From Bacillota bacterium (GTDB lineage Bacteria; Bacillota; Clostridia; Christensenellales; SZUA-584), in assembly GCA_023415915.1 (NCBI GenBank), contig JAEZIZ010000096.1, positions 217-64,216 on the forward strand: a stretch of DNA of 64,000 nucleotides, in the 5' to 3' direction. The notes under the pieces were generated by a model. It was given only the letters and a program-made list of their open reading frames with translations, made no database searches and was not told where the DNA came from. Made by a program: the position numbers and the translations under genes. This document shows, in pieces, positions 26,863 through 55,564 of the stretch; positions within the stretch are counted from its first letter, which is position 1; each line of letters begins with the position of its first letter.

Positions 26863-26909
26863 TGGTGACCCACCGAAGACTCGAACTCCGGACACCTTGA
26901 TTAAAAGTC
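26863..26909 (-). repeat. attR-like direct repeat: displaced 3' 47 nt of tRNA-Lys(TTT)
   Basis: Identical to 55489-55535 except A26876 versus G55502. Covers the CCA end, T-arm and up to the anticodon loop. The 5' half of the tRNA is absent. Confidence 0.9.
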
Positions 26910-27045
26910 TATTAAATACAATTTTCAAAGATACCCATAGAAGAAGTGAAAAGTCCCAGTACCCGCTTAAACACTGAATTCTGAGGCTTTTTACTGGTTA
27001 AAATAAATTCATTAATTTCATTGCTTTTCATGTTCTATTGTTTCA

Positions 27046-27066
27046 GATGCAGTAAAAATGCAGTAA
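27046..27066 (+). repeat. 21-bp repeat GATGCAGTAAAAATGCAGTAA (copy 1), itself an internal TGCAGTAA doublet
   Basis: Exact second copy at 55387-55407, same orientation, at the opposite island end. Confidence 0.85.
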
Positions 27067-27107
27067 AACTTTATAGTTAATGAAGATATCATTACCGCGC
27101 ATTTTGA

Positions 27108-27114
27108 CAGAAAC
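27108..27114. repeat. IS21 target-site duplication, left copy (CAGAAAC)
   Basis: The same 7-mer directly abuts the right IS end at 29656-29662. Confidence 0.75.
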
Positions 27115-27164
27115 TGTTTTCGGTAAAATGAAAATTGTGCAGATGGACCCCAAAAGTTTAGCAC
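27115..27164 (+). repeat. IS21-family left terminal inverted repeat
   Basis: tgttttcggtaaaatgaaaattgtgcagatggaccccaaaagtttagcac aligns with the reverse complement of 29605-29655. The inner ~23 nt are nearly identical. Confidence 0.8.
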
Positions 27165-27261
27165 CCAGATAGGATGAAAAGGAGCCATTGTCAGCGTTCC
27201 AAATAAACAGTTACCCTTTAAGATGTTGAAGTCTAAAGGGGGTAACAGAAAGGTGCTGAAA

Positions 27262-28755
27262 ATGGCTCAGAAACAGTATATCAAACATCTCTATGAAAAT
27301 GAAGAGAAGTCCTTGCGAGAGATTTCCCGGATCATGGACCTGAGTTTCCAGACTGTAAAAAAGTACGCCTACGAGGAAAACTGGAACCAGGCGCATTTAC
27401 CGAATGTCGAACCGTCAAACCATCCTCTGCTGGGGCCGTATATTGAAACAATAGACAAGTGGTTGGAGGAAGACCGGCGCGCACCGCGAAAGCAGCGGCA
27501 CACGGCATCCCGCATTCACGCGCGGCTGCAAGAGGAATGCGGGTATCCGGGCAAGTACTCCGGGGTCAAAAAATACGTCCGCAAAAAGCAGTATCTCATG
27601 CGGCAACAGGAAGCGGGCTTTCTGCCGTTGGCACAGCCAATGGGAAATGCGCAGGTGGACTTCGGAAAGATGGTCTACCACGATAGCCTTGGCCGCGAGA
27701 AGGACGGATATGCTCTGACGATCTCGTTTCCGTATTCCAACCACGCACTGACCCAAGTGTTCCCATCACAGAATCAGGAATGCCTGCTGGAAGGAATGAA
27801 GCGGATATTTGAACGGATTGGCGGTGTGCCGGTAAAACTCAAAGCGGACAACATGACTACCGCTGTGGCACAGGTGCTGGAAGGCAAAGAGCGCATTCTG
27901 TCGGATGGCTTCGCCCGATTCATGCTGCATTACCGATTTCAGGCTGAATTTTGCAATCCGGCTTCCGGCAACGAAAAAGGCAACGTGGAAAACAAGGTCG
28001 GCTACAGCCGCAGGAACTTCTTTGTACCGGTTCCCGTGATTGAAGACTTTGACGCCTACAATTTGGAACTGTTCGAGCGTTGTGAAAAGGACGCCGAGCG
28101 CGAGCATTACAAAAAGCACGTTCTGATCTGTGAGCTATGGGAGGAGGAAAAACAGAAGCTCCTGTATCTGCCGGAATACGAGTATGAGGTCTACCGCTAC
28201 GAAACCGCCCGGCTGAATAAGTATGGCTGCGCAGTCATTGAAACCAACAGCTATGGTCTTTCGCCGGAGCTTGCCGGGCAAACGGTACAGGCGAAGATCT
28301 ACTTCGACCGCGTGGAACTTTTCTACGACCACACGCTGCTCAAGGTGTATCCGCGCTGCTACGAACGGGATACCGAGGTTTTGGACTGGACACAGTATGT
28401 CGGAACGCTGTGCAAAAAGCCCCATGCAGTTGAGCATACCCGTTTTTTCCATCAGCTCCCCAAGCTATGGCAGGAGCATCTGTTAGCAACAGGAGGCAAG
28501 GAGCGAAAAAGCGCACTCATGTTGCTTTCAGAGATCGTACGGGACGGTAATGCTGCCCTTTGCGACGATACGCTTGCCTTAGCCGTTGAGTGCGGACGAA
28601 CGGATACGGACAGCCTGCGGCAATGCTACTATATGATTGCCAAGCGCGAATACCGTCCGCAGCCGCTTACGCTTACGGCGGCAGCACCTGCGTTGAACTA
28701 CAACCCCAACCTTACCGCCTACGATGGTCTGACGGGAGGTGCTCGGAATGTTTGA
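27262..28755 (+). CDS. istA: IS21-family transposase IstA
   Basis: N-terminal HTH (SLREISRIMDLSFQTVKKY), DDE integrase-like core, length ~500 aa. Start ambiguous (27223 or 27262). Confidence 0.9.
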   Translation: MAQKQYIKHLYENEEKSLREISRIMDLSFQTVKKYAYEENWNQAHLPNVEPSNHPLLGPYIETIDKWLEEDRRAPRKQRHTASRIHARLQEECGYPGKYSGVKKYVRKKQYLMRQQEAGFLPLAQPMGNAQVDFGKMVYHDSLGREKDGYALTISFPYSNHALTQVFPSQNQECLLEGMKRIFERIGGVPVKLKADNMTTAVAQVLEGKERILSDGFARFMLHYRFQAEFCNPASGNEKGNVENKVGYSRRNFFVPVPVIEDFDAYNLELFERCEKDAEREHYKKHVLICELWEEEKQKLLYLPEYEYEVYRYETARLNKYGCAVIETNSYGLSPELAGQTVQAKIYFDRVELFYDHTLLKVYPRCYERDTEVLDWTQYVGTLCKKPHAVEHTRFFHQLPKLWQEHLLATGGKERKSALMLLSEIVRDGNAALCDDTLALAVECGRTDTDSLRQCYYMIAKREYRPQPLTLTAAAPALNYNPNLTAYDGLTGGARNV

Positions 28756-29491
28756 CACCATTGAAGCTGGAATGCGAAAGCTGAAGCTTGGAGGATTGGC
28801 CAGAGACTGGCGCAGCGTGCCTTTTGAAAATACTGAACAGTACGTTGCCGCGCTGCTCGATCTGGAATTGAAAGAGCGCGAAGTCAACCGAATTAACCGC
28901 ATGGTGCGCATTGCCGGGTTCAACGTGATGAAAACGCTGGACGATTTCGTCTGGTCGAAAGTGATTGAGCTTCCCAACGGCCTGACTCGCGAATACATGG
29001 AAGAGCTATGCTTTATCCCAAAAAAGGAAAACCTGATCTTCCTCGGTTCTGTCGGCACCGGCAAGACCCACTTGGCGACGGCGATTGCGCTCAAAGCTTG
29101 CGAGCAGGGTAAGCAGACACGTTTTTTCACAGCAGCTTCGCTGGCTAATATCCTCTTGGAGAAGAACCAGAAAGGCACGCTCAATGCTTACCTGGGTTCT
29201 CTGAAAAACGTGGAACTCATGGTGATTGACGAGATTGGTTTTGTCCCTCTGCACAAGGACGCCGCTGAATTACTGTTTCAGGTAATTTCAGACTGCTATG
29301 AGCGCAAAAGTCTGATCATTACCTCCAACCTGGAGTTCTCTGGCTGGAACACGGTATTCGGGGAAAACCGCCTGACCGCTGCCTTGATTGACCGGCTGAT
29401 CCACCATTCTCACATTGTGATCTTCACCGGCGAGAGCTACCGCCTGACACAATCCATGCAGCGCCAGCAGGCAAGGAAAGAAATGAGGTGA
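28748..29491 (+). CDS. istB: IS21-family helper ATPase IstB
   Basis: AAA+/DnaC-like Walker A GSVGTGKTHLA and Walker B MVIDEIG. GGGAGG SD. Overlaps the istA stop. Confidence 0.9.
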   Translation: MFDTIEAGMRKLKLGGLARDWRSVPFENTEQYVAALLDLELKEREVNRINRMVRIAGFNVMKTLDDFVWSKVIELPNGLTREYMEELCFIPKKENLIFLGSVGTGKTHLATAIALKACEQGKQTRFFTAASLANILLEKNQKGTLNAYLGSLKNVELMVIDEIGFVPLHKDAAELLFQVISDCYERKSLIITSNLEFSGWNTVFGENRLTAALIDRLIHHSHIVIFTGESYRLTQSMQRQQARKEMR

Positions 29492-29604
29492 TATGACGAT
29501 TCCCAACGGGTCCACGGGCCTTACTTGTGCAAATGGCCCTCTGTCGCACAAAAGGCCCTCACTTGTGCATCTGGACCCGACTCTACTTTTATGGACGCTG
29601 GCTA

Positions 29605-29655
29605 GTGCTAAACTTTTTGGGGTCCTTTTGCTGAACTTTTGGATTGACAAACACA
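29605..29655 (-). repeat. IS21-family right terminal inverted repeat
   Basis: Its reverse complement tgtgtttgtcaatccaaaagttcagcaaaaggaccccaaaaagtttagcac matches the left IR. Confidence 0.8.
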
Positions 29656-29662
29656 CAGAAAC
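29656..29662. repeat. IS21 target-site duplication, right copy (CAGAAAC)
   Basis: Matches 27108-27114. Confidence 0.75.
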
Positions 29663-29889: not shown

Positions 29890-31005
29890 TTATCCGATTC
29901 TTTTTTCCGTCGCTTTATCAAAGATATGTATCAACTCGCGTTGAAATTTTAGCTGTAATGGGGTCTTCATAGGTATTCCCGTCCTGAATCTCTGCGGCAA
30001 GTCGACTGTATCAACGCGCACGACGGTGTCCCTTCCCTGAACGTCAACATGCAGATATATCTCGCTGCCCATAAGCTCAGAAATCATGACCGAACATGGT
30101 ATCAGATCGTCGTCGCCCTGCTCACAGACAGATATGTGCTCGGGTCTAATACCCAGTATCACATCTTTTTCGGCTTCTTCGTCTTTTAATGTTCGTTGTA
30201 AGCCTTCGCTGAGCTCGATTTTTGTGCAATCAAGTGATGCATAATATTTTCCTTTTATTTTTTCCAGTCTTGCATCAAAGAAGTTCATTTGAGGCGTTCC
30301 GATAAAGCCTGCTACAAACATGTTTGCAGGCGTATTAAACACTTCCTGAGGGGTACCAATCTGCTGTATGAGTCCGTCTTTCATAATGACTATCCTGTCG
30401 CCCAAAGTCATCGCTTCTATCTGATCATGAGTTACATAAATAAACGTGGTATTTAGCTTTTTGCGCAACAGTATTAATTCAGCACGCATCTGATTTCTCA
30501 GTTTTGCGTCAAGGTTAGATAGAGGCTCGTCCATTAAAAATACTTTCGGTTCGCGTACAATGGCACGGCCTATGGCTACTCTTTGCCTCTGTCCGCCCGA
30601 AAGAGCTTTTGGTCTCCTTTTTAACAAATCAGTAATTCCCAGTATCTCCGCTGCTTCCTTAACCTTCTTATCTATTACTGCTTTATTGACATGACGCAGC
30701 TTTAATGAGAAAGCCATATTTTCATATACAGTCATATGAGGATATAGCGCATAATTCTGAAATACCATTGCAATATCCCTGTCTTTAGGCGCGATATCGT
30801 TAACAAGCTTGTCATCTATATATATTTCACCTTCGGTAATCTCTTCAAGTCCGGCAATCATACGAAGAGTAGTGGACTTCCCACAGCCTGAAGGGCCAAC
30901 CAACACAATAAATTCCTTGTCTTCGATTTCAAGGTTAAAATCCTGTACTACCGGGGAGTTCTTCGTGTATTCCTTCTTCAAGTTTCTTAATGAAAGTTTC
31001 GCCAT
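29890..31005 (-). CDS. Carbohydrate ABC transporter ATP-binding protein (MsmK/MsmX/UgpC/MalK type)
   Basis: GPSGCGKST Walker A, LSGGQRQR signature, C-terminal TOBE-like regulatory domain. Confidence 0.9.
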   Translation of the reverse strand: MAKLSLRNLKKEYTKNSPVVQDFNLEIEDKEFIVLVGPSGCGKSTTLRMIAGLEEITEGEIYIDDKLVNDIAPKDRDIAMVFQNYALYPHMTVYENMAFSLKLRHVNKAVIDKKVKEAAEILGITDLLKRRPKALSGGQRQRVAIGRAIVREPKVFLMDEPLSNLDAKLRNQMRAELILLRKKLNTTFIYVTHDQIEAMTLGDRIVIMKDGLIQQIGTPQEVFNTPANMFVAGFIGTPQMNFFDARLEKIKGKYYASLDCTKIELSEGLQRTLKDEEAEKDVILGIRPEHISVCEQGDDDLIPCSVMISELMGSEIYLHVDVQGRDTVVRVDTVDLPQRFRTGIPMKTPLQLKFQRELIHIFDKATEKRIG

Positions 31006-31251
31006 ATGTACAGCTTTGATAGTCTGGCATTCGCCTCACTATCTCACATATGCAGAGCTAACCCGCATATGCTTTACGACAGGTCTCCACACTGCCGCAC
31101 CGCAAGCTAACGGATATACTTACCTCCTTTTTTATAGTATGCACAAACCCGTTTGGTGGAGTGGTCATGCGCAACTTTTTTTATACTTGATGTGTCTATC
31201 CGGATTACTCTCCGGCGCCTGTTGCTGCTTATCAGCAACTCACTTTCCTTA

Positions 31252-32133
31252 TTAATATTCTTTTTTTCTTGCCGACTCTATTTCATCGCTCCAGTCAAGA
31301 TGTTTATATTCCGCCGCTTCGGGCGCGTCCTTTATCCAATCGATAAAATCGTTCATGATGTCAAGGCTCCATATATCTGTGTCTATCTGAGCCGTTGTGT
31401 ATGTCTTATCTGCAAGCCTTTTAAATCCGAATATGTCCCTTAGGTGGGATTTCTCTGCCCTGACGACAACTGGCTCCACAAGGTGAGAAGGTATAAAGAT
31501 AACTCCGGAAATAGTTCCCAGCACGACGTCACCCGGCATGCATATGGCGTTGCCGATACGGCACGGCACATTCATACCCACCATTGTAGAATCTTCAATC
31601 GGCGTGGGGTCAATCCCTCTGTAATACACTTGGTATCCGTCGATTTTGACTATCTGTTCAAGATCTCTAATACCGCCCCATATCACGGCGCCTCCGTTTT
31701 TCGTGCGCGATTTTATCGCAGTTGAAAGGTTTCCTCCTACATATGTACCCTGGAAAATCTTATCAAACATATCAACTACGACTACGTCGTTTTCCACAAG
31801 GCTATCTACTACCCATTGGTTAAAATCACCGACGCGGCCTTCGTGTGTATGCCCATATTTCATCAAATAATCATGAAGATCAGGCCTTTTGGGCACCATT
31901 ACGGCTGTTACTGCACGCCCTACAAGCTGTACTCCCGGGTGCGACATCTTAAACCCGCCCTCATACTGAAACTTATACCCTCTCAGCCATAGCGCATGCC
32001 ACGCTTCTTCCAGCGTAATTTTCCGCACTCGGCGTAAAAGATCGTCGCTGACCTTTGGCCTTCCGTTTTCAAACCTTTCCCCTTTCCATTCCTGTGTCAG
32101 CTGTATAATGTCTTCTTTGCAATCAAACTTCAT
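31252..32133 (-). CDS. RraA-family protein (putative class II pyruvate aldolase / oxaloacetate decarboxylase-like), long form
   Basis: GRAVTA...GGNLSTAIKSRTKNGGAVIWGGIRD matches the RraA/HMG-aldolase core. At 293 aa it has N- and C-terminal extensions. Confidence 0.6.
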   Translation of the reverse strand: MKFDCKEDIIQLTQEWKGERFENGRPKVSDDLLRRVRKITLEEAWHALWLRGYKFQYEGGFKMSHPGVQLVGRAVTAVMVPKRPDLHDYLMKYGHTHEGRVGDFNQWVVDSLVENDVVVVDMFDKIFQGTYVGGNLSTAIKSRTKNGGAVIWGGIRDLEQIVKIDGYQVYYRGIDPTPIEDSTMVGMNVPCRIGNAICMPGDVVLGTISGVIFIPSHLVEPVVVRAEKSHLRDIFGFKRLADKTYTTAQIDTDIWSLDIMNDFIDWIKDAPEAAEYKHLDWSDEIESARKKEY

Positions 32134-32182
32134 AGGTTTTTTACCTTTCGTCTTCGGTTATATATTTGGTATCGTAATGCTT

Positions 32183-33403
32183 TTACAGTACTCCCGGGGA
32201 AGTCCAATAAGCTGCGGGCGCTTCTTCCCATAGAGGCATGCTCAAACCGCCCGGATCGAACACTATCTTTCCATTCCTCAGCGTCATCACGCATTCAAGC
32301 TTTTTATCTCCGTTAAGTCTTGCATTACCGCAGTCTGCGTAGCTGAAACTGCCTTCAAGCAGTTTTAACACAGCGATGTCCGCGCAGCTTCCCACTGACA
32401 GATTGCCAAGTTCAGGATGGCCGAAAATCTTTGCAGGGAACACGGTAGTCCTCGCTATGACTTCATTAAGCGGCATCCCGATGCAAAGATACTTTGACAT
32501 TATATTAAGTACATTAAGCGCTGCACCGTGTATGTTCTCCATGTAAAGATCGCTTGAAAGCGTATCAGGCCCGAATCCGTCCCTGTACGCAGGAACCGCG
32601 TTTCTGAACCAGAAGCTCCCCGCTCCATGGCCGAGATCAAAGAGCACGCCCCGTTCTCTCGCTTCAAGTATAAAATCGTTGACGCGCATTTCCTTATTCA
32701 GCACCGGAAACTGCTGGGCGTACATGTGCGTGTGTATGTCCCCTTTGCGAAGCCTTTTCAACAAATCCCGATACGTACGCTGCTCCTTATATGGATAAAA
32801 GTCCACCATAAGAGGTTTTCCGCACATTTCGGCGGCTTCCAGCGATGCTTCTACGGAAGCCCACGGAGGATGTTCGGCATCGAACGGGCGCATCGTCCAA
32901 TAATGCGCGGTCTTTACGGCTACCACAATATCCGAATATGCTTTTGCAATCTCGGCTACGACGCCTTTGTTGAATTCACTAGGCTTTTGTTCGGACGCCA
33001 TCTGCACCATACCGCCCGCCGCTATATTCAGCATGGCGAGTACTCTGGCTTCCGATTGGTCGATGACCTGTTCTTTGAAGTGGAAGAAGTCGCGCCATCC
33101 GCATGTGCCTGCGTCGATAGCGGTTACAACGCCCGCCTGCAGCATGTGCGCGTCCGCGTTGATGTTGTAGAGCTTGTCCTTCTGTTGAGGGAAGCTCGGA
33201 TATATATGGCAGTGACAGTCGATAAGTCCAGGTGTGACTATATACCCGGAGAGATTTACCGTCTTGTCGGCCAAGTCCGCGATATCCTTTTCAACCTTTT
33301 CAACTTTTCCGCCGGAGATCGCGATATCGTATATCCCATCGAGTCCGTTTGCCGGATCGATAAGCCTCCCTCCCTTTAGAAGGAGCTCGTATTTTTGTTT
33401 CAT
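32183..33403 (-). CDS. Amidohydrolase-superfamily metallohydrolase (deacetylase/dihydroorotase-like)
   Basis: Start at MKQKYELLLKGG (GGGAGAG SD). PGLIDCHCH HxH metal motif, later H and D ligands. Confidence 0.75.
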   Translation of the reverse strand: MKQKYELLLKGGRLIDPANGLDGIYDIAISGGKVEKVEKDIADLADKTVNLSGYIVTPGLIDCHCHIYPSFPQQKDKLYNINADAHMLQAGVVTAIDAGTCGWRDFFHFKEQVIDQSEARVLAMLNIAAGGMVQMASEQKPSEFNKGVVAEIAKAYSDIVVAVKTAHYWTMRPFDAEHPPWASVEASLEAAEMCGKPLMVDFYPYKEQRTYRDLLKRLRKGDIHTHMYAQQFPVLNKEMRVNDFILEARERGVLFDLGHGAGSFWFRNAVPAYRDGFGPDTLSSDLYMENIHGAALNVLNIMSKYLCIGMPLNEVIARTTVFPAKIFGHPELGNLSVGSCADIAVLKLLEGSFSYADCGNARLNGDKKLECVMTLRNGKIVFDPGGLSMPLWEEAPAAYWTSPGVL

Positions 33404-33450
33404 TTCTCTCTCCCTTTTAATCGTACAAATGAATAATAATGCTTTTACTG

Positions 33451-34455
33451 TTATACAATATGTCCAGCAGCCACCGCGCACGAGGCGTTTGCTAAAGCGG
33501 CGCTGCTGCAGGCAACGAGCGAATTTTTAGTTATCCGAAGGCTCGTCACGTTGCCGCTCTTCTGGTTGCAGCAGATTAAATAGTCCTCTTTCTCGCTCAG
33601 CGTTATCCATCTGGGCCAACTACCGCCGCATCCAGACTCGAATAATACATGCGGTTCCGCCGTGTTTACGTCTATCGCGGCTATAGTATCCGCGCCCCTG
33701 TTCGCCACATAAAGCACTCCGCTGCTTGAAAGGCATGCCGCGCCGGGATAATTTGTAATGCCGCGCTCGGTCGTACGCAATTCCGATATGACATTTGGCG
33801 TGCCCGAGATATCAAGTATGCTTACCGTGCTGTTAAGCTCGCCTATAATATAGGCTGACTTTCTGCTTTCAGACAGTATTACCTGCCTCGGGCCGCTTCC
33901 GGCCTCAATAGCGGTACTGCCGAGCAGTTCGCCGTCCGCCGCCCTTCGCCACAGCAGCATATCGAGTCCTAAATCCGCAACGCAAAGCGTTTTTTCAGCT
34001 CCCTGTAAAGCCTCGCGTCTTTCAGGAAAGCCGGTATAAACTTCCGCGCTCCAATGCGCATGGGGCTGGGCCTGACTGTCGGAAGCGTTGCGATGCATCC
34101 ACAGCACTTTTGTAAGCGCAGCGTCTGCCGCAAACACATCACCGCTTCCGTAGCAGCACCCAACGACTGTTTCACGACTGGCAAGCAGGTGGCAAAGTCC
34201 CGAACATCCGTCGATGCTGATTTGGCTGTCTATATAAAGCCGTCCGCCATCTCCCTTGATAAACAACACTGACGCGCCCGAGTCATATTCCTGCGCGGCA
34301 TATACTCCGTCCTCGCCCGGGCAGAGAAACGAAGGGTTCCTGCCAATACGCAGCCCGGTTTTTATCTCAAGGCTTCCGTAATTATCCATGCTTAGCAGAA
34401 GCAGGTCGTTGCCTTTGTCGGCGCTGTAGCCGCTTGCCAGCCAATAGCCGCACAT
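33451..34455 (-). CDS. 7-bladed beta-propeller lactonase (6-phosphogluconolactonase/YbhE-like)
   Basis: ADLGLD, GSGPRQ, YVANRGADTIAAIDV and PRWITL blocks match the lactonase propeller family pattern. Confidence 0.7.
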   Translation of the reverse strand: MCGYWLASGYSADKGNDLLLLSMDNYGSLEIKTGLRIGRNPSFLCPGEDGVYAAQEYDSGASVLFIKGDGGRLYIDSQISIDGCSGLCHLLASRETVVGCCYGSGDVFAADAALTKVLWMHRNASDSQAQPHAHWSAEVYTGFPERREALQGAEKTLCVADLGLDMLLWRRAADGELLGSTAIEAGSGPRQVILSESRKSAYIIGELNSTVSILDISGTPNVISELRTTERGITNYPGAACLSSSGVLYVANRGADTIAAIDVNTAEPHVLFESGCGGSWPRWITLSEKEDYLICCNQKSGNVTSLRITKNSLVACSSAALANASCAVAAGHIV

Positions 34456-34458
34456 AAC

Positions 34459-34926
34459 TTACTCCGCCTCGACTATTACCTCTACCTCGACAGGTATATT
34501 GTTGTTAGGCATGTTATGCGTTCCCATAACCGTACACGCATGATATCCGCGCTCTTCAAGCGCCTCTGCAATGGTATCGGAAAATCCGTCCATGACGCCG
34601 TCCACATCGCAGAATCCTTCCGCACAGTTAACAAGCGCAAACACTTTTACAAACTTCTTTACCTTGTCAAGCGTACCTAAAATGTCTTTTAATGCGCCGA
34701 GTATAATTATCGCGCATTCTCTTGCAGCCGCGTAGCCTTCCTCAAAGGTAAGATCTTTGCCTATACGCCCTTTATAGATAGGTTCTCCGGTAATGGCGTC
34801 CTCCGGACCGTGTCCCGATACATATATCAGGCCATCCACACGGCGGAAGAGCACTATACCCCTCTTTTTCTTGTAAACAGGCTCTGTTTCCTTTCCATCT
34901 ACAATTACTTTATTTATGCTGTCCAT
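34459..34926 (-). CDS. RidA/YjgF/Rid-family protein (paralog 1)
   Basis: 155 aa. YVSGHGP...GKIG...ARECAIIILG...VDGFSD...HACTVMG pattern typical of the Rid family. Confidence 0.75.
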   Translation of the reverse strand: MDSINKVIVDGKETEPVYKKKRGIVLFRRVDGLIYVSGHGPEDAITGEPIYKGRIGKDLTFEEGYAAARECAIIILGALKDILGTLDKVKKFVKVFALVNCAEGFCDVDGVMDGFSDTIAEALEERGYHACTVMGTHNMPNNNIPVEVEVIVEAE

Positions 34927-34942
34927 CAGGCTATCCCTCCGC

Positions 34943-35410: not shown

Positions 35411-35430
35411 TTTTTAACTCCTTTCGTTTT

Positions 35431-38799: not shown

Positions 38800-38801
38800 C
38801 C

Positions 38802-40106: not shown

Positions 40107-40121
40107 TTTCTGTCCCTGTTC

Positions 40122-44271: not shown

Positions 44272-44281
44272 AGTTGTTTTC

Positions 44282-46029: not shown

Positions 46030-46061
46030 ATCGGTTCCTTCTTACATAGTTTATTTAGTAT

Positions 46062-46091
46062 TACCCGCCCCTTTTACAAAAGGGGCGGGTA
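46062..46091 (-). promoter_or_regulatory. GC-rich intra-operon stem-loop between the SBP and permease genes
   Basis: CCCGCCCCTTTT / AAAAGGGGCGGG inverted repeat with no following U-run on the coding strand. Possibly an mRNA stabiliser or partial terminator that raises SBP stoichiometry. Confidence 0.45.
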
Positions 46092-46115
46092 TTGACATTA
46101 CAGACTATTTCAGAC

Positions 46116-47450: not shown

Positions 47451-47509
47451 TTTCCTCCCATATATAGAATTAATATTAGGTCTTTTTTACATACGACCTA
47501 AGCTATAAA

Positions 47510-48490
47510 TCAAATTGTAACAACAGCGTTTTTTTGTAGCGACTCGCATTCTTTACCGACAAGGTAGATTGTATCGCGCGCGCTTTCGGGAGTGACGCCG
47601 GTAACCTTTGAATCTCCGTTCAATATTGCCGCAAATTCGGTTAGTTCCTGATACACTCCGTCTATTTCGGACGGAACTCCTGTAAGCGTTTCCATTTTTG
47701 CGTAATAAAAATCTTTCCCTGCCGGATAAACGGCGACCTTCCCGTCCTTATACTCAATAAGTCCGTGTTCAAATACAGCCAGATATCCGCTTGACCACGG
47801 GAATGTGGAATCATTCCATCCGCCTTCCGCTACGACTGTTATGTCTTTGTTGTTGAATATATAATGGGTATTTATATAGCTCATGTGGATATCTGGCTGC
47901 TCTATACCTACACTGTGCACGGCATCGGGCAAACCAAACAGGTAATTGACCATATCGGTATCATGAATGTGCATCTCATAACAGACCATTTTGCATAGAT
48001 CCGGATTCATATACCAAGATCCTTGGGGATGCACTCCGTAATAACGCCTAAGAGAAAGGTAACGCAGCCTGCCAAGACTTTCGTCCGCTATTTGCTGCTT
48101 TAAATAGCGGTATTCAGGCCAATAGCGCAGCACCTGCCCCACCATCATCTTTACGCCTTTTTCTTTTGCTTTTGCTATCATTTCGTCCGCTTCGCCCACC
48201 GAATGAGCCATCGGCTTTTCGCAGAATACGTGCATGCCTCTCTCAATGCATTTCAGAGAGTATTCATAATGCAAAAACGACGGAACACAGATATCAACAG
48301 CATCGGGCCTGATATCGGCAAGCATCTCGTCTATATTGCAATATGCCCTGCAGTTAAGCACCTTTGAATACTTTTCTGCCGCTTCAAAGTTCATATCAAC
48401 TACCGCGCACACCTCAAGGCCTTTTACATATTTGTAAGCCTCGATATGGTTTGCTCCCATGCCTCCTGTTCCTATGACTGCTATCTTCAT
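47510..48490 (-). CDS. Gfo/Idh/MocA-family oxidoreductase
   Basis: MKIAVIGTGGMG Rossmann N-terminus, CEKP motif. Confidence 0.85.
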   Translation of the reverse strand: MKIAVIGTGGMGANHIEAYKYVKGLEVCAVVDMNFEAAEKYSKVLNCRAYCNIDEMLADIRPDAVDICVPSFLHYEYSLKCIERGMHVFCEKPMAHSVGEADEMIAKAKEKGVKMMVGQVLRYWPEYRYLKQQIADESLGRLRYLSLRRYYGVHPQGSWYMNPDLCKMVCYEMHIHDTDMVNYLFGLPDAVHSVGIEQPDIHMSYINTHYIFNNKDITVVAEGGWNDSTFPWSSGYLAVFEHGLIEYKDGKVAVYPAGKDFYYAKMETLTGVPSEIDGVYQELTEFAAILNGDSKVTGVTPESARDTIYLVGKECESLQKNAVVTI

Positions 48491-48537
48491 TATGATCTCC
48501 TTTTAGGTATTGCAATTGCAATGATTTAATTGAGAAA

Positions 48538-48551
48538 TGTAAGCGTTTACA
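48538..48551. promoter_or_regulatory. LacI-family/cre-like palindromic operator TGTAAGCGTTTACA
   Basis: 13 of 14 positions palindromic. Fits TGNAANCGNTNNCA. Starts 5 nt downstream of the -10 of the promoter at 48557-48585. Confidence 0.65.
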
Positions 48552-48556
48552 TTATT

Positions 48557-48585
48557 ATTATACTATTTCACCGTATGCATGTCAA
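48557..48585 (-). promoter_or_regulatory. Consensus sigma-A promoter of the oxidoreductase/ABC/enzyme operon
   Basis: Minus strand: TTGACA, 17 nt, TATAAT. Confidence 0.7.
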
Positions 48586-48665
48586 TATCGCTTTCTTAAA
48601 AATTCCGTTACCCTTTTATTCCACCGCATGTATGCCCTTAGTTCTGCAGACTGCACTTAATCTGT

Positions 48666-49700
48666 TTACTGTACCGTTGTTACTTTACTGGAGAATAAGA
48701 ATGTACCTACTTTAAGGTCCTTTGATTCGGCTATAATACTTCCTACACACTGTGCAGGAACAATATTGCTTATGCATGCAAGCTCACTTGAGGCATAGTG
48801 CTGCCGTAAAACAAGTATTTCACTTTCCGAGAGCTCCACGTTGGAATCCGTTACGAATACAACTTTTGTGCCCTTTTGCGCGACCTGACGCGCCAGATTC
48901 TCCATTAAGCTGTAGCATTTATCCTTTGGCGCAAATATAAAGGCTGTCAGCCCTTTTCCCAGCATCTCAAAAGGCCCGTGCCTAAACTGCGCCGCTTCAA
49001 GATATATTGCAGGGTGCTTTGCGACCTCTTTAGCAAACAGCGCGCCAGCGTCGCCGGTGCAGCAGCTGTAACCGCGCGCAATGAATATAAGCGTATCTTT
49101 TACATCAATGTGGGCTTTTATAGCGTCCTTCATTATATAAAACGAGTCCAGCGCTTTTTCAAGGTTAAGCAGAGAATCGGCACAACGTTGCTGCTCATCG
49201 CTGTCCCATGCGCCTATGAAGCTCTTAGCAAACATATGCATAAGCAGCAAAGGCGCTATATAATTTCGAGTGCTTACGGCGACTTCGCTTTCCATGTAAA
49301 GTTCCAAAAGCAGGTTCGAGCGTTTACCCAGCGGGCTGAGCGCGTCGTTTGTAACCCCCACCACAAAAACGTCTTTGCTTAACTTTTCCGTCAGCTCAAC
49401 AATTTCCGCGCTTCTGCCGCTTTGGGATACTATTACGACTATGTCGTCGTCGGAAACGCTCTCCATCTCATAGTGAATAAGCTGGCTGGTTACCTGTGTG
49501 TCGCATAGCATACCGGCGTTGCGCAATATCGTCGCCGCGTTCATACAGGCGGAGTATGACGAGCCCATTCCCGTAAGCAATACCCGGCGGTAGCTGCGTT
49601 TTGAAAGCTCGCTTATCTGTGAGATATAGTTCAAATACAGCTTGTATCCCGCCGATACATCCTTCGCTTGGTTTAAAACGTCCTGCTCATAAATGTTCAT
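48666..49700 (-). CDS. Double-SIS-domain protein (FrlB/AgaS/GlmS-isomerase-like sugar-amine phosphate deglycase/deaminase)
   Basis: Start at MNIYEQD. TGMGSSY and VSQSGRSAE SIS motifs, second SIS repeat, ~345 aa. Confidence 0.7.
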   Translation of the reverse strand: MNIYEQDVLNQAKDVSAGYKLYLNYISQISELSKRSYRRVLLTGMGSSYSACMNAATILRNAGMLCDTQVTSQLIHYEMESVSDDDIVVIVSQSGRSAEIVELTEKLSKDVFVVGVTNDALSPLGKRSNLLLELYMESEVAVSTRNYIAPLLLMHMFAKSFIGAWDSDEQQRCADSLLNLEKALDSFYIMKDAIKAHIDVKDTLIFIARGYSCCTGDAGALFAKEVAKHPAIYLEAAQFRHGPFEMLGKGLTAFIFAPKDKCYSLMENLARQVAQKGTKVVFVTDSNVELSESEILVLRQHYASSELACISNIVPAQCVGSIIAESKDLKVGTFLFSSKVTTVQ

Positions 49701-49714
49701 CACTATTCCCCGCT

Positions 49715-50797
49715 TTACGATATTAATAATTGTTCCAAGCCGCAAGGTTCGCCGTTACGGACATAGCTGTATGCGCTTGCATTGCCCATCTTCACACACT
49801 CCTCAAGGCTCTTGCCAAGCAGCTTTCCTATGCAATATCCTGCGTTATAGTTATCGCCTGCTCCCGTAACCACTTTAGGCTGCTTGACCGTCTCCGGTAT
49901 TACGCTTGCCTCGTTTTCTTTTGTAACCGCAACGCTGCATCCCAGGCTATGCACGGTAATCTCATCTATTTCCAGGCGCATTAGCAGCGTTTGTGCCGTC
50001 TGCGATATCGATTCGGCCTTTTCCCCGATGTACTCCGCAAGATTGACAGCCTCTTTCCGGTTTGCGCTAAGCATCGTATAGTATCTTTGCTTAAGCCGGG
50101 GCATCAGCGAGATAAGCTCAGAAACGCGGTTAAGCGGAGCAGTGGAGATATCTGCAAGGTCCATAAACAATATTTGCATCTTTTCTTTTCTCTTTTGCGT
50201 ATCACCAAGCAATATCTCTTTAATTATATCGTTGCCATGATTAAGCCCGCCCCAGTTGACAAAGCATATCAGATCGCTTTCCAGCAACTCGTTTAGTTTT
50301 CGTTCTCCTATTCTTTGCTTCACTAAACGCGGAGTAATATCATCCAGCGTGCTCCGTTCTCCAAACATTATCTTGCCGTCCGGAAACTCCAGAGCGTAGC
50401 ATTCCGCCGGAGCGCTGATCGCCGTTGTTTCGCAGCTTCTTTGGAGCTGCTCGAATACTGACAATACACTGCCTTCCCCAATCGCGCCCGCGCAATGTAA
50501 CGTCAGCCCTTTTTTCGCAAGAGAATGTGCAAGTATAGGGGCGTTCCCCCCCATACGCCTGTAAACGCGCTTAACGCTTATATCTGCGCTTGCGCTTTCG
50601 TGCTTTATTATAAATTCATTAAACTGTTTTATGGATTCAAAGCGGCCGTAAGCGGTCATCGGCATGACGATTTCATCCACATAACCGTCAAAACCTACAA
50701 ATGCGGAGCGCTCGCTTAATATGTATTCACCATTATGCTTTTGGCCCTGATTTTCCATAATAGACAGTAGCTTCTCTATACACCCGGAAAGCTTCAA
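49715..50797 (-). CDS. Ribokinase-superfamily (PfkB-like) sugar kinase
   Basis: MGGNAPILA and C-terminal TGAGDNYNAG motifs. Start ambiguous (TTG 50797 or ATG 50758). Confidence 0.65.
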   Translation of the reverse strand: MKLSGCIEKLLSIMENQGQKHNGEYILSERSAFVGFDGYVDEIVMPMTAYGRFESIKQFNEFIIKHESASADISVKRVYRRMGGNAPILAHSLAKKGLTLHCAGAIGEGSVLSVFEQLQRSCETTAISAPAECYALEFPDGKIMFGERSTLDDITPRLVKQRIGERKLNELLESDLICFVNWGGLNHGNDIIKEILLGDTQKRKEKMQILFMDLADISTAPLNRVSELISLMPRLKQRYYTMLSANRKEAVNLAEYIGEKAESISQTAQTLLMRLEIDEITVHSLGCSVAVTKENEASVIPETVKQPKVVTGAGDNYNAGYCIGKLLGKSLEECVKMGNASAYSYVRNGEPCGLEQLLIS

Positions 50798-50822
50798 ACT
50801 CTCAGAGAATTCCGTATCAATA

Positions 50823-50836
50823 TGTAAGCGTTATCA
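50823..50836. promoter_or_regulatory. LacI-family/cre-like operator TGTAAGCGTTATCA
   Basis: Related to the site at 48538-48551. Lies 11 nt downstream of the -10 of the promoter at 50848-50876. Confidence 0.6.
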
Positions 50837-50847
50837 TTTTCATTCGA

Positions 50848-50876
50848 ACTATATCACATTCACTGGGCTTAGTCAA
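50848..50876 (-). promoter_or_regulatory. Sigma-A promoter of the kinase/SIS operon
   Basis: Minus strand: TTGACT, 17 nt, TATAGT. Confidence 0.65.
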
Positions 50877-50957
50877 GATGTGTATTTCAGTGTTATTATT
50901 TGATTTTATTTACTTAAATTATTTATTATTAACAATTTAAAACTATATGCATAGCTA

Positions 50958-50986
50958 TTGACGAGGTTTCCCGAGTGTGCTAATTT
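50958..50986 (+). promoter_or_regulatory. Candidate promoter of the island eda-kdgK pair
   Basis: TTGACG, 17 nt, TGc-TAATTT extended -10. Confidence 0.45.
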
Positions 50987-51049
50987 GTATTTACGGCCTG
51001 TTTGACGTACCCTTTTATTATAAACAACACTCAAGAAAGGCGTGAAAAA

Positions 51050-51676
51050 ATGAAAACGTTTCAAAAAATAAATTCTATTGGTATTGTACCTGTCGTTGTA
51101 ATTGAAGATATCGAAAAAGCTATTCCTGTCGCAGACGCTCTGGCCGCAGGCGGCATAAACGTAATGGAGATCACTCTTAGAACGAAGTGCGGCCTTGATG
51201 CCATAGAAGCTGTTACAAAAAACCGCCAGGATATGCTGGTTGGCGCCGGCACTGTTTTGACGCTGGAGCAATGTAAAAAATGTGTCGATTCGGGCGCAAA
51301 ATTCATCGTTTCGCCCGGATTTGAAGAAAAAATAGTCTCATGGTGTGTACGGAATGGCGTTGATGTATTCCCCGGTTGCGTTACTCCGACCGAGATAATG
51401 TATGCTCTGAAATACGGTTTAGAGGTAGTGAAATTCTTCCCCGCAAATGTCTACGGCGGCCTGACAGCATTGAAGTCGCTCTCCGGGCCATTCGGAAACA
51501 TCAGATTCATACCCACGGGCGGTATAGACGAAAAAAATCTCAAAGAATACATATCATCTCCCGCTGTATTTGCCGTCGGAGGCAGCTGGCTTTGCAGCAA
51601 GAGCGACATTGCAGCGGGCAACTTCAATAAAATAACCGAGCTTTGCAAACAAGCTTTGAGCATCGCCCGTAAATAA
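51050..51676 (+). CDS. eda: KDPG/KHG aldolase (Eda), short canonical form
   Basis: Start at [17 protein letters not shown]. Colinear with residues 1-205 of the 1121-2077 product. ~208 aa. Confidence 0.85.
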
Positions 51677-51713
51677 TGCTTTAAGAAATCATGCAATGAA
51701 AGGAGTGATTAAC

Positions 51714-52739
51714 ATGAAGTATATTACGTTCGGCGAAATAATGCTGAGGCTCAAATCGCCGGGACACGAACGCCTTTTTCAAAGTCCCATGCTGGAAGCG
51801 ACGTTCGGCGGCGGAGAGGCTAACGTTGCGGTCTCGCTTGCTAATTATGGCGAGGACGCGGCGTTTTTTACTGTGCTTCCTTCAAACAAAATAGGAGACG
51901 AATGCATAAGGGAACTCAGGCGGTTTAATGTTGAAACCTCTACGATAATTCGCGGCAGCGGAAGAATGGGGATATACTATCTGGAAAACGGAGCAAATCA
52001 GCTTCCCAGCAAAGTAATCTATGACCGCGAATTTTCCTCCGTCTCTATTGCAAAGCCCGGCAGCATCGATTGGGAAAAAGTACTGGATGGCCGCGATTGG
52101 TTTCATATCACGGGCATTACGCCAGCGATATCACAGAGCGCGATGGAACTTTCATTTGAGAGCGTTAAGGCCGCAAAGTCTCTTAGATTAACAGTTTCAT
52201 GCGACCTAAACTACCGTAAAAATCTCTGGAAATACGGCAAGGAAGCAAAAGATGTGATGCGTGAGCTTGTAAAATACGTGGATATAGCTATTGCAAACGA
52301 AGAAGACTGCCAGAAATCGCTGGGTATTGCCGCATCGGTGGACGTGGAAAGCGGCAGTCTGGACACGGATAAATATAAATCTATCGGAGACATGATACTC
52401 GCCCAATACCCCCAGATGAAAATGATAGCAATTACGTTACGCGAAAGCAAAAGCGCGGATATCAACGGCTGGGCCGCTTGCCTCAACGATCGCAATTCAT
52501 TTCTATTAAGCAAACGCTATGAGATTCGGGATATAATCGACCGGGTCGGCGGCGGGGATTCTTTTGCGGGTGGCCTTATTTACGGGCTCAATCATTATAC
52601 AAGCCTTCAGGAATCTTTGGAATTCGCGGTAGCCGCCTCCTGCTTAAAGCATTCAATAATAGGCGATTTTAATCGCGTAAGCGTTGCCGATGTTGAAAGC
52701 CTTATGAAAGGAGGCGGAAGCGGCAGAGTTCAAAGATGA
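51714..52739 (+). CDS. kdgK: 2-dehydro-3-deoxygluconokinase (second copy)
   Basis: Start at [10 protein letters not shown] (GGAG SD). Colinear along its full length with the 83-1111 product, roughly two-thirds identical by eye. Confidence 0.9.
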
Positions 52740-52797
52740 TCTAAGCTTATTTATTCATCTATGTCAATGGTCGGGGTAAACTCATAGACAAAAAACG

Positions 52798-52837
52798 CAG
52801 GGTTTCAATCTGGGAGAGAGAATTGATTGAAACCCTG
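52798..52837. terminator. Bidirectional hairpin terminator between kdgK (island) and the hsdR remnant
   Basis: 13-bp perfect stem CAGGGTTTCAATC / GATTGAAACCCTG, flanked by an A5 run upstream (a T-run on the minus strand). Confidence 0.7.
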
Positions 52838-52920
52838 TTACATTTATTGTAAATAAACACCATGTCGAACGCTGGCTGCTGATCTTCAGGAAAAGCCGAT
52901 ATCTTTTTTATGATTAAAGT

Positions 52921-52954
52921 CCTTCTCGTCATGTTTCCTTCTCGTCATGTTTCC
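52921..52954. repeat. 16-bp tandem duplication CCTTCTCGTCATGTTT x2 (+2 nt)
   Basis: Direct reading. Lies in the non-coding stretch 3' of the hsdR remnant. Confidence 0.9.
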
Positions 52955-53025
52955 ATACGGTTCTAAGATCAACAACACAACTTATCTTTCCAAGCATATT
53001 ATAACCTCACTTTCATTAGATTTTC

Positions 53026-54838
53026 CTAATCCATATCCATACTCTCCGCCTGCTTTAACACCATGTCTAGCGCCGATTGCTGATCTTCAGGAGGATACTT
53101 ATACTTCTTTAACAGCCGCTTTATCATCACCCTCATACGGGCTCTAGCCTGCTCTTTAAGGTGCCAGTCTATCGTCCGGTTCTTCCGGAGCATCTCCGTA
53201 AGCTCATGAGTCATGTCAATAAGCTGTTGGTTCGTATAGAAGTCCTTTATGTTCTCTAGCCTAGTAATAGCGTCATAGAACGCAAGCTCCTCAGCGTTAA
53301 GGCCTAACTCGTTGCCTTCATCCTTAGCCTTTTTCATCTCTTCAGCCATTTTTATAAGCTGCTCAATGACCTCAGCATTTGTTATCAGCCCGTTCCTGTA
53401 GAGCTTCATAAGCTTGTCCATTTTTTCAGAGAACAGTTCCGACTTTACAAGATTCGTGCGCATGTATGCTCTTATCTCGTCGGCCAGCAGCCTCCTCAGC
53501 ATCTCAGCCGCAAGGTTCTTCTGTTTCATGTCCTGGACTCGCTTTAGAAAGACAGGGTCGAATATCGAGAACTCGGGAGAATCGGCGAACAGACTTATCA
53601 CTCCGTTGCTGTGTATACTCGCCTTCAATAGTCCGTTAATTCTCTCGTTTATCTCCTTTACGCTCAGCTTACCTGGTCCCGTAACCTTTGCAACGCCACT
53701 GCGTACGGCTTCGAAGAAAGCCGCTTCCATACGAGTATCTTCATCCAATAGGCTCCTGCACAGTGTCTCGGCATGTGCCAGAGCTAATGCTTCTTTAAGA
53801 TATGCTTTCTTTTTTTCTTCGTCCGATAGTATGAAATCGATGCCTTCCGCTATTACCCGCGCTCTCTCAAGGTCGCTATCCCCGAAGAACGGTCCGTAGT
53901 CAAGCCCGTGCATTAGATCACGGCATATTTCAAGCTTCTCCTCGAACTTTGGCAGCGCGCTTTCTCCGATGTCCGGGTTACCGAAGTTCTCTTTGTTCCT
54001 AGCTGTGTAGTCCTTCATGGCCTTTTTCAAAGCGCCAGCGATACCGACATAGTCGACGATAAGGCCGCCTTCTTTGTCCTTGTATACGCGGTTGACGCGG
54101 GCTATTGCCTGCATCAGTGTGTGTCCCTGCATCGGTTTGTAGATATACATCGTGTTAAGACACGGCACGGCGAATCCGGTCAACCACATATCCACAACGA
54201 TACATATCTTCAGCGGATCGTCGGGTTTTTTGAAATGCTTCGCCTTGTCATCACGTTCCCGTTTGCCGCCGATAATATCAAACCACTCTACCGGATCCTG
54301 GTTGTTTCTTGTCATTACAAGCCCGAGCTTGTCCTTCCAGTCAGAACACAGTTCTAGAATCTTTTTGTATATCTTCATCGCTATAGGCCGGGAATAGGCA
54401 ACTATCATTGCCTTGCCCGCGAGTATATGCTTTCTGTCTTCGTAATGTTTTACTATGTCTTTGCACAGCTCATTTATCGTCTCGTCCGCGCCGAGAATAG
54501 CCTCCATCTGCCCGAGCTCTTGCTTTGACTTTGCTATATGGTACGGCCATCTCCTCATATTCGGCGTCTATCCTGTCGAGCACCTGTTTGTCGAGGTTCA
54601 GCTTCATTACACGGCTCTCGTAAAATATCGGCCTTGTGGCCTCGTCCTCAACGGACTGAGTCATATCGTAGATGTCTATGTACTCTCCGAATATCTCCTG
54701 CGTGGAGCGGTCGTCTACGGTATCGATAGGCGTGCCGGTAAATCCTATAAACGAAGCGTTAGGTAGCGCGTCTCGAACATACTTTGCCATACCGTATGTT
54801 ATCTTGCCTGTCTCCCTGTCCACCCTCGCTTCCAGCCC
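53026..54838 (-). pseudogene. hsdR: Type I restriction enzyme R subunit (hsdR), 5'-truncated and frameshifted
   Basis: Two overlapping frames (54470-54823 and 53026-54558) carry helicase motifs ([11 protein letters not shown]; QAIARVNR) and the C-terminal helical domain. The frame switches near 54530-54545. The nuclease domain and the ATP-binding helicase motifs I-II are absent. No hsdM/hsdS in the window. Confidence 0.85.
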
Positions 54839-54841
54839 GGT

Positions 54842-55396
54842 CGCGGCGAGCTTATTGCGCTCACATGGAATGATATAGATTTAAAGGCAAAAAGTTTAGC
54901 TGTAAATAAGTCGGTGATTTATGTTAATAACCAAGCTCAAATTAAAAGTCCAAAGTCAAGTTCAGGTGTTCGTTCTGTTCCCATACCTGATACTATTTTA
55001 GAAGCCTTAAAGCAGGCAAGAAAGTGTGCTGAATCAACAATAGTATGTCCCGCCGCCGATGGTCGTATGATGTCTCACGTCGCTTTTAACCGCGCTTGGA
55101 GAAGCTATTTAAACTATCTTAATACTAAAGCAGGTGGACGAGTTGCTTCACGCAGTCGTCCTAAGCTCACTTTGATCGACAATATAACACCGCACATGTT
55201 CAGGCACACCTATGCAACCATACTGTACAATGCCGGAGTCGATATTAAGAGCGCCCAGCGTTTCCTTGGTCATTCCGATATTAATGTTACACTTAAAATA
55301 TATACCCATCTTTCAACGAAAAAAGAACAGGAAGCAATTGATTCTTTAAACAAGCATTTAAATGATAATGCATACGAAAAAAATCTGATGCAGTAA
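54842..55396 (+). pseudogene. Tyrosine recombinase/integrase, 5'-truncated (C-terminal catalytic part only)
   Basis: Homology starts abruptly at [14 protein letters not shown] (box I) and continues to HMFRHTYAT...LGHSDINVTLKIYTH (box II, catalytic Tyr). No N-terminal domain and no ATG (only an internal GTG at 54914). Confidence 0.8.
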
Positions 55397-55407
55397 AAAT
55401 GCAGTAA
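55387..55407 (+). repeat. 21-bp repeat GATGCAGTAAAAATGCAGTAA (copy 2)
   Basis: Exact match to 27046-27066. Spans the integrase stop codon, 81 nt from the att core. Confidence 0.85.
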
Positions 55408-55450
55408 TCAATGCTTTTTTGACCTAAAATCAATGCTCATATAAAACGTC

Positions 55451-55482
55451 AAAGCCCTTAAACATCAATGTTTAAGGGCTTT
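55451..55482. terminator. Hairpin terminator between the integrase remnant and tRNA-Lys
   Basis: 14-bp stem AAAGCCCTTAAACA / TGTTTAAGGGCTTT with a 4-nt loop. Could serve both converging transcripts. Confidence 0.7.
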
Positions 55483-55488
55483 TCAGCC

Positions 55489-55564
55489 TGGTGACCCACC
55501 GGAGACTCGAACTCCGGACACCTTGATTAAAAGTCAAGTGCTCTACCGCCTGAGCTAGTGGGTC
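55489..55564 (-). tRNA. tRNA-Lys (anticodon TTT), CCA encoded
   Basis: Hand-folded cloverleaf: acceptor GACCCAC/GTGGGTC, anticodon arm CTTGA-CTTTTAA-TCAAG, T-arm CGGAG-TTCGAGT-CTCCG. Confidence 0.9.

Follow-up and report, generated by a model that had tools for sequence, protein, structure and literature searches.

A genomic island with a 22-gene catabolic locus at a tRNA-Lys(UUU) gene in an uncultured Bacillota lineage

Genomic islands are described as segments of 10-200 kb that lie at the 3' ends of tRNA genes between direct repeats, and metabolic islands are a standard category among them (PMC2704930). As far as PMC1635311 relays Williams 2002, the tRNA-targeting tyrosine integrases of temperate phages and integrative elements use anticodon-loop, T-loop or 3'-end sublocations, and the element itself brings the 3' part of the tRNA gene: the integrase gene (int) then neighbors the rebuilt tRNA gene, while the old 3' end comes to lie at the opposite end of the element. 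Here, we analyze positions 26863-55535 (~28.7 kb) of a 64,000-nt stretch of contig JAEZIZ010000096.1 (the window), the compositional data being limited to these 64 kb of the genome. We consider it very probable that this segment is a genomic island integrated at tRNA-Lys(UUU) by a tyrosine integrase. By the criteria of PMC2704930 that we tested it is a metabolic-type genomic island, except for a clearly atypical composition, and this category is already well known. Like the islands described there, it is an accessory segment absent in close relatives, sits at a tRNA 3' end between direct repeats and contains a cryptic integrase, an insertion sequence (IS) and fitness cargo. Unlike them, it is flanked by a repeat of 47 nt instead of the often quoted 16-20 nt, a length explained by a crossover at the anticodon loop; its nucleotide statistics are only weakly atypical, and its host belongs to an uncultured lineage of Bacillota near Christensenellaceae. 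An earlier sequence-only reading of the window had called the catabolic cargo of such an island unusual, a judgment that does not hold given that metabolic islands are a standard category.

The two ends of the island are made up of the following features.

26826..26861, minus strand: native terminator hairpin of the tRNA operon (terminator scan: 14 pairs, then a T run)
26863..26909, minus strand: orphan 3' 47 nt of tRNA-Lys, the far-end att site, apparently composite (46/47 identity)
55451..55482, minus strand: island-borne terminator, the present terminator of the tRNA operon, with a hairpin different from the orphan's
55489..55564, minus strand: intact tRNA-Lys(UUU), in which 55489-55535 is the integrase-proximal att core

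ARAGORN placed tRNA-Lys(ttt) at 55489-55564 on the minus strand, as the last gene, in the tRNA sense, of an Arg-His-Gln-Lys tRNA cluster, and a promoter-like site (TTGACA, 17 nt, TAAAAT) was found at 56042-56014. The 3' 47-mer of tRNA-Lys occurs exactly twice in the window, at 26863-26909 and 55489-55535, in the same orientation and with 46/47 identity, the sole mismatch being A26876 versus G55502. No match to it was obtained in 100 dinucleotide-preserving shuffles. The repeat extends from the CCA end to nucleotide 30, in the anticodon stem/loop. Read in the tRNA sense, the orphan has CTTCG in place of CTCCG in the 3' strand of the T stem, so that G-U replaces a G-C pair. The repeats, their single mismatch and its effect on the T stem are thus as the sequence-only reading had described them, and with only two copies in the window, the 47-mer is very probably not a dispersed repeat. 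The native terminator directly follows the orphan in the tRNA sense, as it also follows a 20-nt orphan in the related loci L001 and L026. At the other end, a 114-nt segment comprising the 55451-55482 hairpin and the adjoining tRNA-Lys is 97% identical to its counterpart in the island of a second species (L123). The left junction was present in seven other metagenome contigs and the right arm, up to the repeat, in four independent assemblies, indicating that the arrangement is not an artefact of a single assembly.

A tyrosine integrase had been proposed to abut the intact tRNA as a remnant, together with a relic of a restriction enzyme. Both were recovered, next to a second and shorter relic.

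52740..53025, minus strand: relic of a second hsdR 3' end (36-nt repeat; the translation resembles an HsdR C terminus)
53026..54850, minus strand: hsdR pseudogene, HindI-like type I restriction subunit (Pfam T1RH-like_C, T1R_D3-like)
54842..55396, plus strand: tyrosine-integrase remnant (Pfam Phage_integrase), corresponding to residues 203-390 of a 390-aa relative

The fragment (int') ends 92 bp from the tRNA, so that a cryptic integrase lies at the end of the island. Its full-length close relative, the 390-aa integrase of L031 from a sediment metagenome, matched the window by tblastn only over residues 203-383, from position 54842, with 71% identity; the N-terminal 202 residues matched nothing in the window. 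The fragment therefore lacks the domains for arm and core binding, and only the C-terminal 188 residues of the enzyme survive. Indeed, int' aligns with the catalytic-domain blocks conserved in its homologues (RGEL, HxxR, GH and the Y in IYTHLS). The hsdR pseudogene has lost its 5' part and carries a frameshift near 54550; a SWI2_SNF2 domain was recorded on a 117-aa piece of it. The head-to-head junction of the two relics at ~54842-54850 recurs in independent Logan and Joint Genome Institute (JGI) assemblies, and since int and hsdR point away from each other and each has lost its 5' half, one deletion is enough to explain the two relics. Pfam scans of the island found neither hsdM nor hsdS, only the hsdR pseudogene and the second 3' relic, and the island thus has no intact type I restriction-modification system. 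The second relic lies directly downstream of the pseudogene, and its 36-nt repeat (52856-52891 versus 53057-53092) is 86% identical; it points to an earlier rearrangement or replacement of the restriction module.

Just inside both ends of the island we found the same paired motif.

26910..27107, resuming at 29663-29889 after the IS, no strand assigned: non-coding P' arm, contiguous in the IS-less loci L022 and L026
27046..27066, plus strand: candidate arm-type integrase sites of the P' arm, GATGCAGTAAAAATGCAGTAA (TGCAGTAA twice with an 11-bp period), 21/21 identical to 55387-55407
55387..55407, plus strand: candidate arm-type sites of the P arm, the same 21-nt motif overlapping the int stop codon

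The P-arm copy of GATGCAGTAAAAATGCAGTAA lies 81 bp from the core, and the P'-arm copy lies 136 bp from the orphan. On the plus strand of the window, TGCAGTAA is found at the four arm positions and at 26702 only, with ~0.85 copies per strand expected. This fifth copy (26702-26709) has the same orientation and, at 161 bp to the left of the orphan, is not part of the island; chance may account for it, or an earlier related element of which it is a relic. Homologues of int keep the DNA motif although it is read in two frames, ending in ...NLMQ* or ...DAVKMQ*, which argues for a function at the DNA level. Relatives with other integrases have the same arm architecture with a different word. In the second species, two copies of AGGGTCA (11-bp period) overlie the int stop codon of L123 and two more lie in the P' arm of L120, with only one further copy in the ~32-kb L120/L123 island and none in the 20.7 kb of the empty-site locus L002; ATGCCACTATT is found twice in L004 and TTGACTAT twice in L006. 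Because the word changes with the integrase, we regard the paired motifs as putative arm-type integrase-binding sites. In comparison with the tRNA-targeting integrases covered by the part of PMC1635311 mentioned above, the likeness lies in the tRNA 3' part carried beside int, the rebuilt gene and its chromosomal 5' part, and in an N-terminal arm-binding-type motif (KKRxDGxY) in the full-length integrases of L031 and L123; the candidate arm sites of the window differ in consisting of a tandem 8-mer pair over the int stop codon and another pair in the P' arm. The geometry of repeats, int and terminators fits the integration of an element bearing the 3' part of the tRNA.

A metagenome search with the integrase alignment returned mostly relatives of 30-45% identity located away from tRNAs, L031 being the sole useful one. 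This closest full-length integrase (L031, 73-1435) has AATGCAGTAAAAATGCAGTAA at its stop codon, as in the window, and lies beside tRNA-Ala(ggc). An arm-motif search of viral contigs gave two matches, one in a giant-virus metagenome-assembled genome (MAG) that showed no tRNA there and one in L029 (1500-2450), where an integrase relative lies beside a fragment of a different tRNA. Taken together, the tRNA neighbors of L031 and L029 indicate that close relatives of the integrase switched tRNA targets and kept the arm motif.

A search of genome contigs with RecO gave six loci. In L001 (JBLNCA010000041.1), whose RecO is 97% identical to that of the window, the tRNA cluster is followed by 163 bp and then by the sequence running leftward from window position 26883, and 28.6 kb are absent. 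Identity between L001 and the window is 99-100% over the stretch from 18.4 kb, or further left, to ~57.5 kb and falls to 93-96% to the right of it. Synonymous divergence (pS) is ~0.02 within this tract (18445-57500) and 0.15-0.20 to its right, so that a recently exchanged tract spans the integration site. The MAG containing L001 is labelled Burkholderiales, all other relatives being Bacillota or Christensenellaceae MAGs, and this label is probably a binning or labelling error.

The second species is represented by L120 and L123, which overlap by 6993 bp at 100% identity and give a syntenic island of 32.4 kb from repeat to repeat. Its order is tRNA-Lys, island-borne terminator, a 374-aa integrase, hsdS, full-length hsdR, the 22 cargo genes, P' arm and a perfect 47-nt orphan, followed by a flank with TnpV and a histidine kinase. 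L002 is 99.5% identical over this flank and joins it directly to tRNA-Lys, which makes it a clean empty site. The segment is therefore absent from close relatives in both species (L001; L002 versus L120/L123), and not all relatives share one gene order. The sequence-only reading had called for a search for empty sites, and the outcome is mixed: L001 lacks the 28.6 kb and L002 is clean for the second species, but no clean site was obtained for the window's own. Between the two species, pS is 0.24-0.33 for core genes and 0.64-0.83 for the cargo. As the cargo is more diverged than the core genes, the two species did not inherit their islands from the common ancestor; instead, related islands arrived at the same site in separate events. 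The left junction had no match in our metagenome-contig collection, though JGI contigs contain it, which shows that this collection is incomplete for the lineage.

The left end of the island was further clarified by L026, whose island part is 99.9% identical to that of the window. There, the island is followed by the P' arm, a 47-nt orphan (C variant), the 163-bp filler of L001 at 100% identity, a 20-nt orphan (T variant) and the native terminator. The window and seven other contigs have this arrangement minus 184 bp, that is, the filler and one copy of a 21-nt repeat. At least three states of the site are thus found: L001-type (tRNA, filler, 20-nt orphan), L026-type (island in an L001-type site) and window-type (filler lost between short repeats), and parsimony suggests that they arose in this order. 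By this comparison, the window orphan reads as a composite, in which the island-generated orphan supplied 26884-26909 and an older one of 20-21 nt supplied 26863-26883; the A26876 mismatch is then probably the T of the older orphan rather than decay. The orphan had been taken for the displaced original 3' end with its own terminator. The terminator part of this claim stands, while the orphan part had to give way to the composite origin seen in L026. Together, the direct repeats starting at the anticodon loop, the int remnant, the native terminator and the relatives without the segment bear out the attL/attR footprint that had been proposed.

At first we took L001 for a separate scar that had no relation to the window, a view revised by L026. 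The 20-nt orphan fits an earlier element using the T-loop sublocation. The older scar is located at 9192-9375 in L001, at 3536-3770 in L026 and at 26863-26883 in the window. The filler carries its own terminator and contains an inverted 15-nt piece (CGAAGACTCGAACTC) equal to the plus strand of the window orphan, A variant included. In three contigs the sequence stops precisely at the polymorphic base, which hints at coexisting variants in their samples. In L026, the sequence after the native terminator (3805-3876) differs from the left flank of the window. Other elements are also found here. The integrase P0002 of L007-L012, internally deleted to 188 aa, 69% identical to the window int and provided with the same arm motif, lies beside tRNA-Lys with genes for DUF6076, HTH_17, AAA_25 and a Mob_Pre relaxase as neighbors, and some of these contigs have P0002 separated from the tRNA by an inserted serine-recombinase element or prophage. 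The tRNA-Lys site is thus an accretion hot spot, with an older scar, the island and an IS in this lineage and prophages or serine-recombinase elements in relatives.

The P' arm is interrupted by the IS.

27108..27114, plus strand: left target-site duplication CAGAAAC, 7 bp
27115..29655, plus strand: IS21-family insertion sequence, 2541 bp, with istA at 27223-28755 and istB at 28739-29491
29656..29662, plus strand: right target-site duplication CAGAAAC, 7 bp

Its terminal inverted repeats are imperfect and begin with TGT. Pfam gave 206 bits for IstB_IS21, and IstA contains Mu-transpos_C_2, a Mu-transposase C-terminal domain. With istA/istB, inverted repeats, a short duplication and an empty target in L022, the element has the features of the IS21 family. 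L022, L023, L024 and L026 contain the same island without the IS and with a single copy of CAGAAAC. The IS is therefore a late simple insertion into the P' arm and had no role in the formation of the island.

Most of the island is occupied by its cargo.

29890..52739, no strand assigned: cargo, a 22-gene LacI-regulated catabolic locus (Pfam and NCBIfam)

The first half of the locus encodes, in order, a MalK-like ATPase, an RraA-like protein, an amidohydrolase/deacetylase, a lactonase, two RidA proteins, an AGE-like epimerase, a BadF-type kinase, a DgaE-family lyase, GH4 and a short-chain dehydrogenase/reductase (SDR). It continues with LacI (40930-41961), an enolase-superfamily enzyme, Gfo/Idh/MocA, two permeases, a binding protein, a second Gfo/Idh/MocA, a SIS protein, a Khk-like kinase, Eda and KdgK. 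From their domains, we assigned the LacI regulator and a four-component ATP-binding cassette (ABC) importer to regulation and uptake; GH4, the SDR and the two Gfo/Idh/MocA proteins to glycoside cleavage and oxidation; and the lactonase and the enolase-superfamily enzyme to sugar-acid steps. The AGE-like epimerase, the BadF-type kinase, the DgaE-family pyridoxal phosphate (PLP) lyase, the two RidA proteins, the PRK09237-type deacetylase and the RraA-like protein were assigned to amino-sugar steps, and the SIS protein, the Khk-like kinase, Eda and KdgK to the lower pathway. All 22 genes are intact both in the window island and in L120/L123, with 58-94% amino acid identity and a nonsynonymous divergence (pN) far below pS. 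The cargo is under purifying selection. The gene content suggests uptake and oxidative or deaminating breakdown of a glycoside to 2-keto-3-deoxy-6-phosphogluconate (KDPG); the substrate, probably an amino-sugar or sugar-acid glycoside, is a guess, as no cargo gene reached an NCBIfam equivalog threshold. The pathway looks uncharacterised, and its core enzyme module recurs with other neighbors in L121 and L122.

The closest described route is D-glucosaminate utilization by DgaE and KDPG aldolase (TIGR01437, NF047797), with which the cargo shares a DgaE-family PLP lyase, two RidA proteins, Eda and KdgK. However, the DgaE match reached 158 bits against an equivalog cut-off of 600, uptake is by an ABC system and not by a phosphotransferase system, and the cargo adds GH4, a lactonase, Gfo/Idh/MocA oxidoreductases, an AGE-like epimerase and a deacetylase. 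Substrate and route thus probably differ from those of the D-glucosaminate pathway. The literature that we searched on DgaE and glucosaminate held nothing relevant to the cargo locus.

The locus had been predicted to be a regulated catabolic one, accompanied by an IS and a restriction relic in place of phage or conjugation genes, and Pfam and NCBIfam agree. Pfam scans of the 26 main island open reading frames (ORFs) detected no relaxase, type IV secretion or phage domains. The segment therefore has neither the conjugation apparatus of an integrative conjugative element nor, in these scans, the structural, packaging and replication genes of a prophage or phage satellite. The comparison with integrative mobilizable elements of Bacillota is less simple. 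The nearest int relatives (P0002 of L007-L012) lie beside the same tRNA-Lys with a Mob_Pre relaxase backbone, whereas neither the window island nor the int-proximal part of L123 yielded a relaxase, and no recognizable transfer function is encoded by the window island or the intact L123. The segment is thus probably no integrative mobilizable element either.

These data would be explained by the following course of events. An element-borne attP, consisting of the 3' 47 nt of the tRNA, the element's own terminator and arm-type sites on both sides, would have recombined with the chromosomal tRNA-Lys(UUU). The crossover would have taken place at the anticodon loop, rebuilding the tRNA from its chromosomal 5' part and the 3' part of the island and displacing the previous 3' end and its terminator by 28.6 kb. 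The recipient chromosome would already have been scarred by an older event, which had left the 163-bp filler and the 20-nt orphan, and a later 184-bp deletion between two short repeats would have produced the present 47-nt orphan. One deletion would then have taken the 5' halves of the divergent int and hsdR and everything between them, and the island would no longer be able to excise by its own enzyme. The IS21-family element would also have entered the P' arm, and the 22-gene LacI-regulated locus has been retained intact under selection.

Several observations weigh against this interpretation. The main island ORFs include no mobilization genes that would account for movement between cells. 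The GC content at third codon positions (GC3) reaches 0.64-0.74 in core genes of the right flank, against 0.41-0.59 for the cargo, 0.33 for int' and 0.40-0.60 for the left flank (8.3-26.5 kb); the cargo is thus like the left flank and stands apart only from the core genes on the right. Furthermore, the tetranucleotide correlation of the cargo with the flanks (0.79-0.86) equals that of one flank with the other. Only the hsdR/int relics (0.61-0.69 with the cargo) and the IS are lower, and both pieces are short. Composition hence supports a boundary at the tRNA cluster, not at 26863, and of the compositional comparison that the sequence-only reading had asked for, only the GC3 difference from the right flank was obtained, the left boundary being unmarked and the signature host-like. 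The window and L120/L123 islands have integrases that are only 42% identical and HsdR proteins of different Pfam families. No attP junction or clean empty site of the window's own species was found among the collected loci, as the L001 site bears a scar. Lastly, it is from sequence that the arm motif is read as an integrase-binding site.

Part of this evidence would suit a mosaic built stepwise, in which an int and type I restriction-modification islet at tRNA-Lys gained the 23-kb catabolic locus, or modules were swapped, and the whole never moved as one mobile element. We consider such a history possible, if doubtful. The two islands share the cargo and the P-arm terminator in spite of their dissimilar integrases and HsdR families, and it is likely that they exchanged some modules. 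The second hsdR 3' relic at 52740-53025, the low GC3 of int' next to ~0.5 in the cargo, the weak tetranucleotide correlation of the short hsdR/int segment with the cargo and the different neighbors of the core enzyme module in L121/L122 point in the same direction. On the other hand, both species have a common layout (tRNA-Lys, int, restriction genes, cargo, P' arm, orphan), the same arm motif is found at both ends of the window island, and no transposase, inverted repeats or second att site flanks the cargo. In any case, such a mosaic concerns the history of the island and is compatible with its integration at tRNA-Lys. Slightly less likely again, in our view, is that the island did not integrate in place but arrived by homologous recombination of a larger tract, island and flanks together, from a carrier strain. 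The nearly identical tract shared with L001, with its low pS inside and higher pS beyond, does span the att site. However, L001 shares this tract and lacks the island, so that the tract is not tied to the island; the L026 and window states require integration into an L001-type site at some point; and the repeats and arms would still need an integrase-mediated origin in some ancestor.

Two further explanations dispense with an integrase altogether, and we rejected both. That the 47-mer is left over from a second tRNA-Lys gene, now decayed, or belongs to a dispersed repeat, with the 28.6 kb being ancestral chromosome, is very improbable. tRNA genes are often duplicated and the tetranucleotide signature of the cargo is host-like, but the 47-mer has two copies only, which end exactly at the anticodon loop, with an int remnant and matching arm motifs just inside them; moreover, the segment is absent in L001, the sister island is absent in L002, and divergence between the two species is much higher in the cargo than in the core genes. 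Least probable of all, to the point of being hardly credible, is that the IS21-family element mobilized the block, for instance within a composite transposon or through one-ended transposition. Its only attraction is the position of the IS, 205 bp inside the left end. The IS is a single copy with its own 7-bp duplication, IS-less alleles 99.9% identical carry the same island at the same site, and no second IS end is present near the right boundary. Integration of an island at tRNA-Lys(UUU) by a tyrosine integrase therefore remains the explanation that we favor.

Outside the island, the left flank contains a second sugar locus (17635-26543) with DeoR, ROK, SIS, an orotidine monophosphate (OMP)-decarboxylase-like protein, a cupin-type glucose-6-phosphate isomerase (GPI), an ABC importer, Gfo/Idh/MocA and a xylose-isomerase-like TIM barrel. 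Its GC3 is like that of the island, and it is not found downstream of tRNA-Lys in the species of L002; the left flank may be another variable segment. Further left, 8295-17613 is a low-GC stretch (GC 0.43, GC3 0.40-0.46), unlike 1-8193 and the right flank, and its genes include those for a 775-aa xanthine-dehydrogenase-like protein and a uracil-DNA-glycosylase.

These findings leave the current understanding of genomic islands unchallenged. It is conceivable, and we offer it only tentatively, that the window and L120/L123 islands represent an undescribed family in Christensenellales-like Bacillota: islands without transfer genes, carrying a catabolic locus and type I restriction genes, that move between species into tRNA-Lys by integrases with paired arm sites over the int stop codon and so spread a 22-gene pathway for amino-sugar or sugar-acid glycosides. 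In practical terms, the locus provides an att-site pair with a candidate arm motif and a conserved, selected set of 22 genes. The metagenomes keep intermediate states of the site and allow an unusually explicit reconstruction of the events. Overall, the island is a well-bounded case in which an uncultured anaerobe would have gained a whole nutrient-use pathway in one step and fixed it by losing the machinery for excision.

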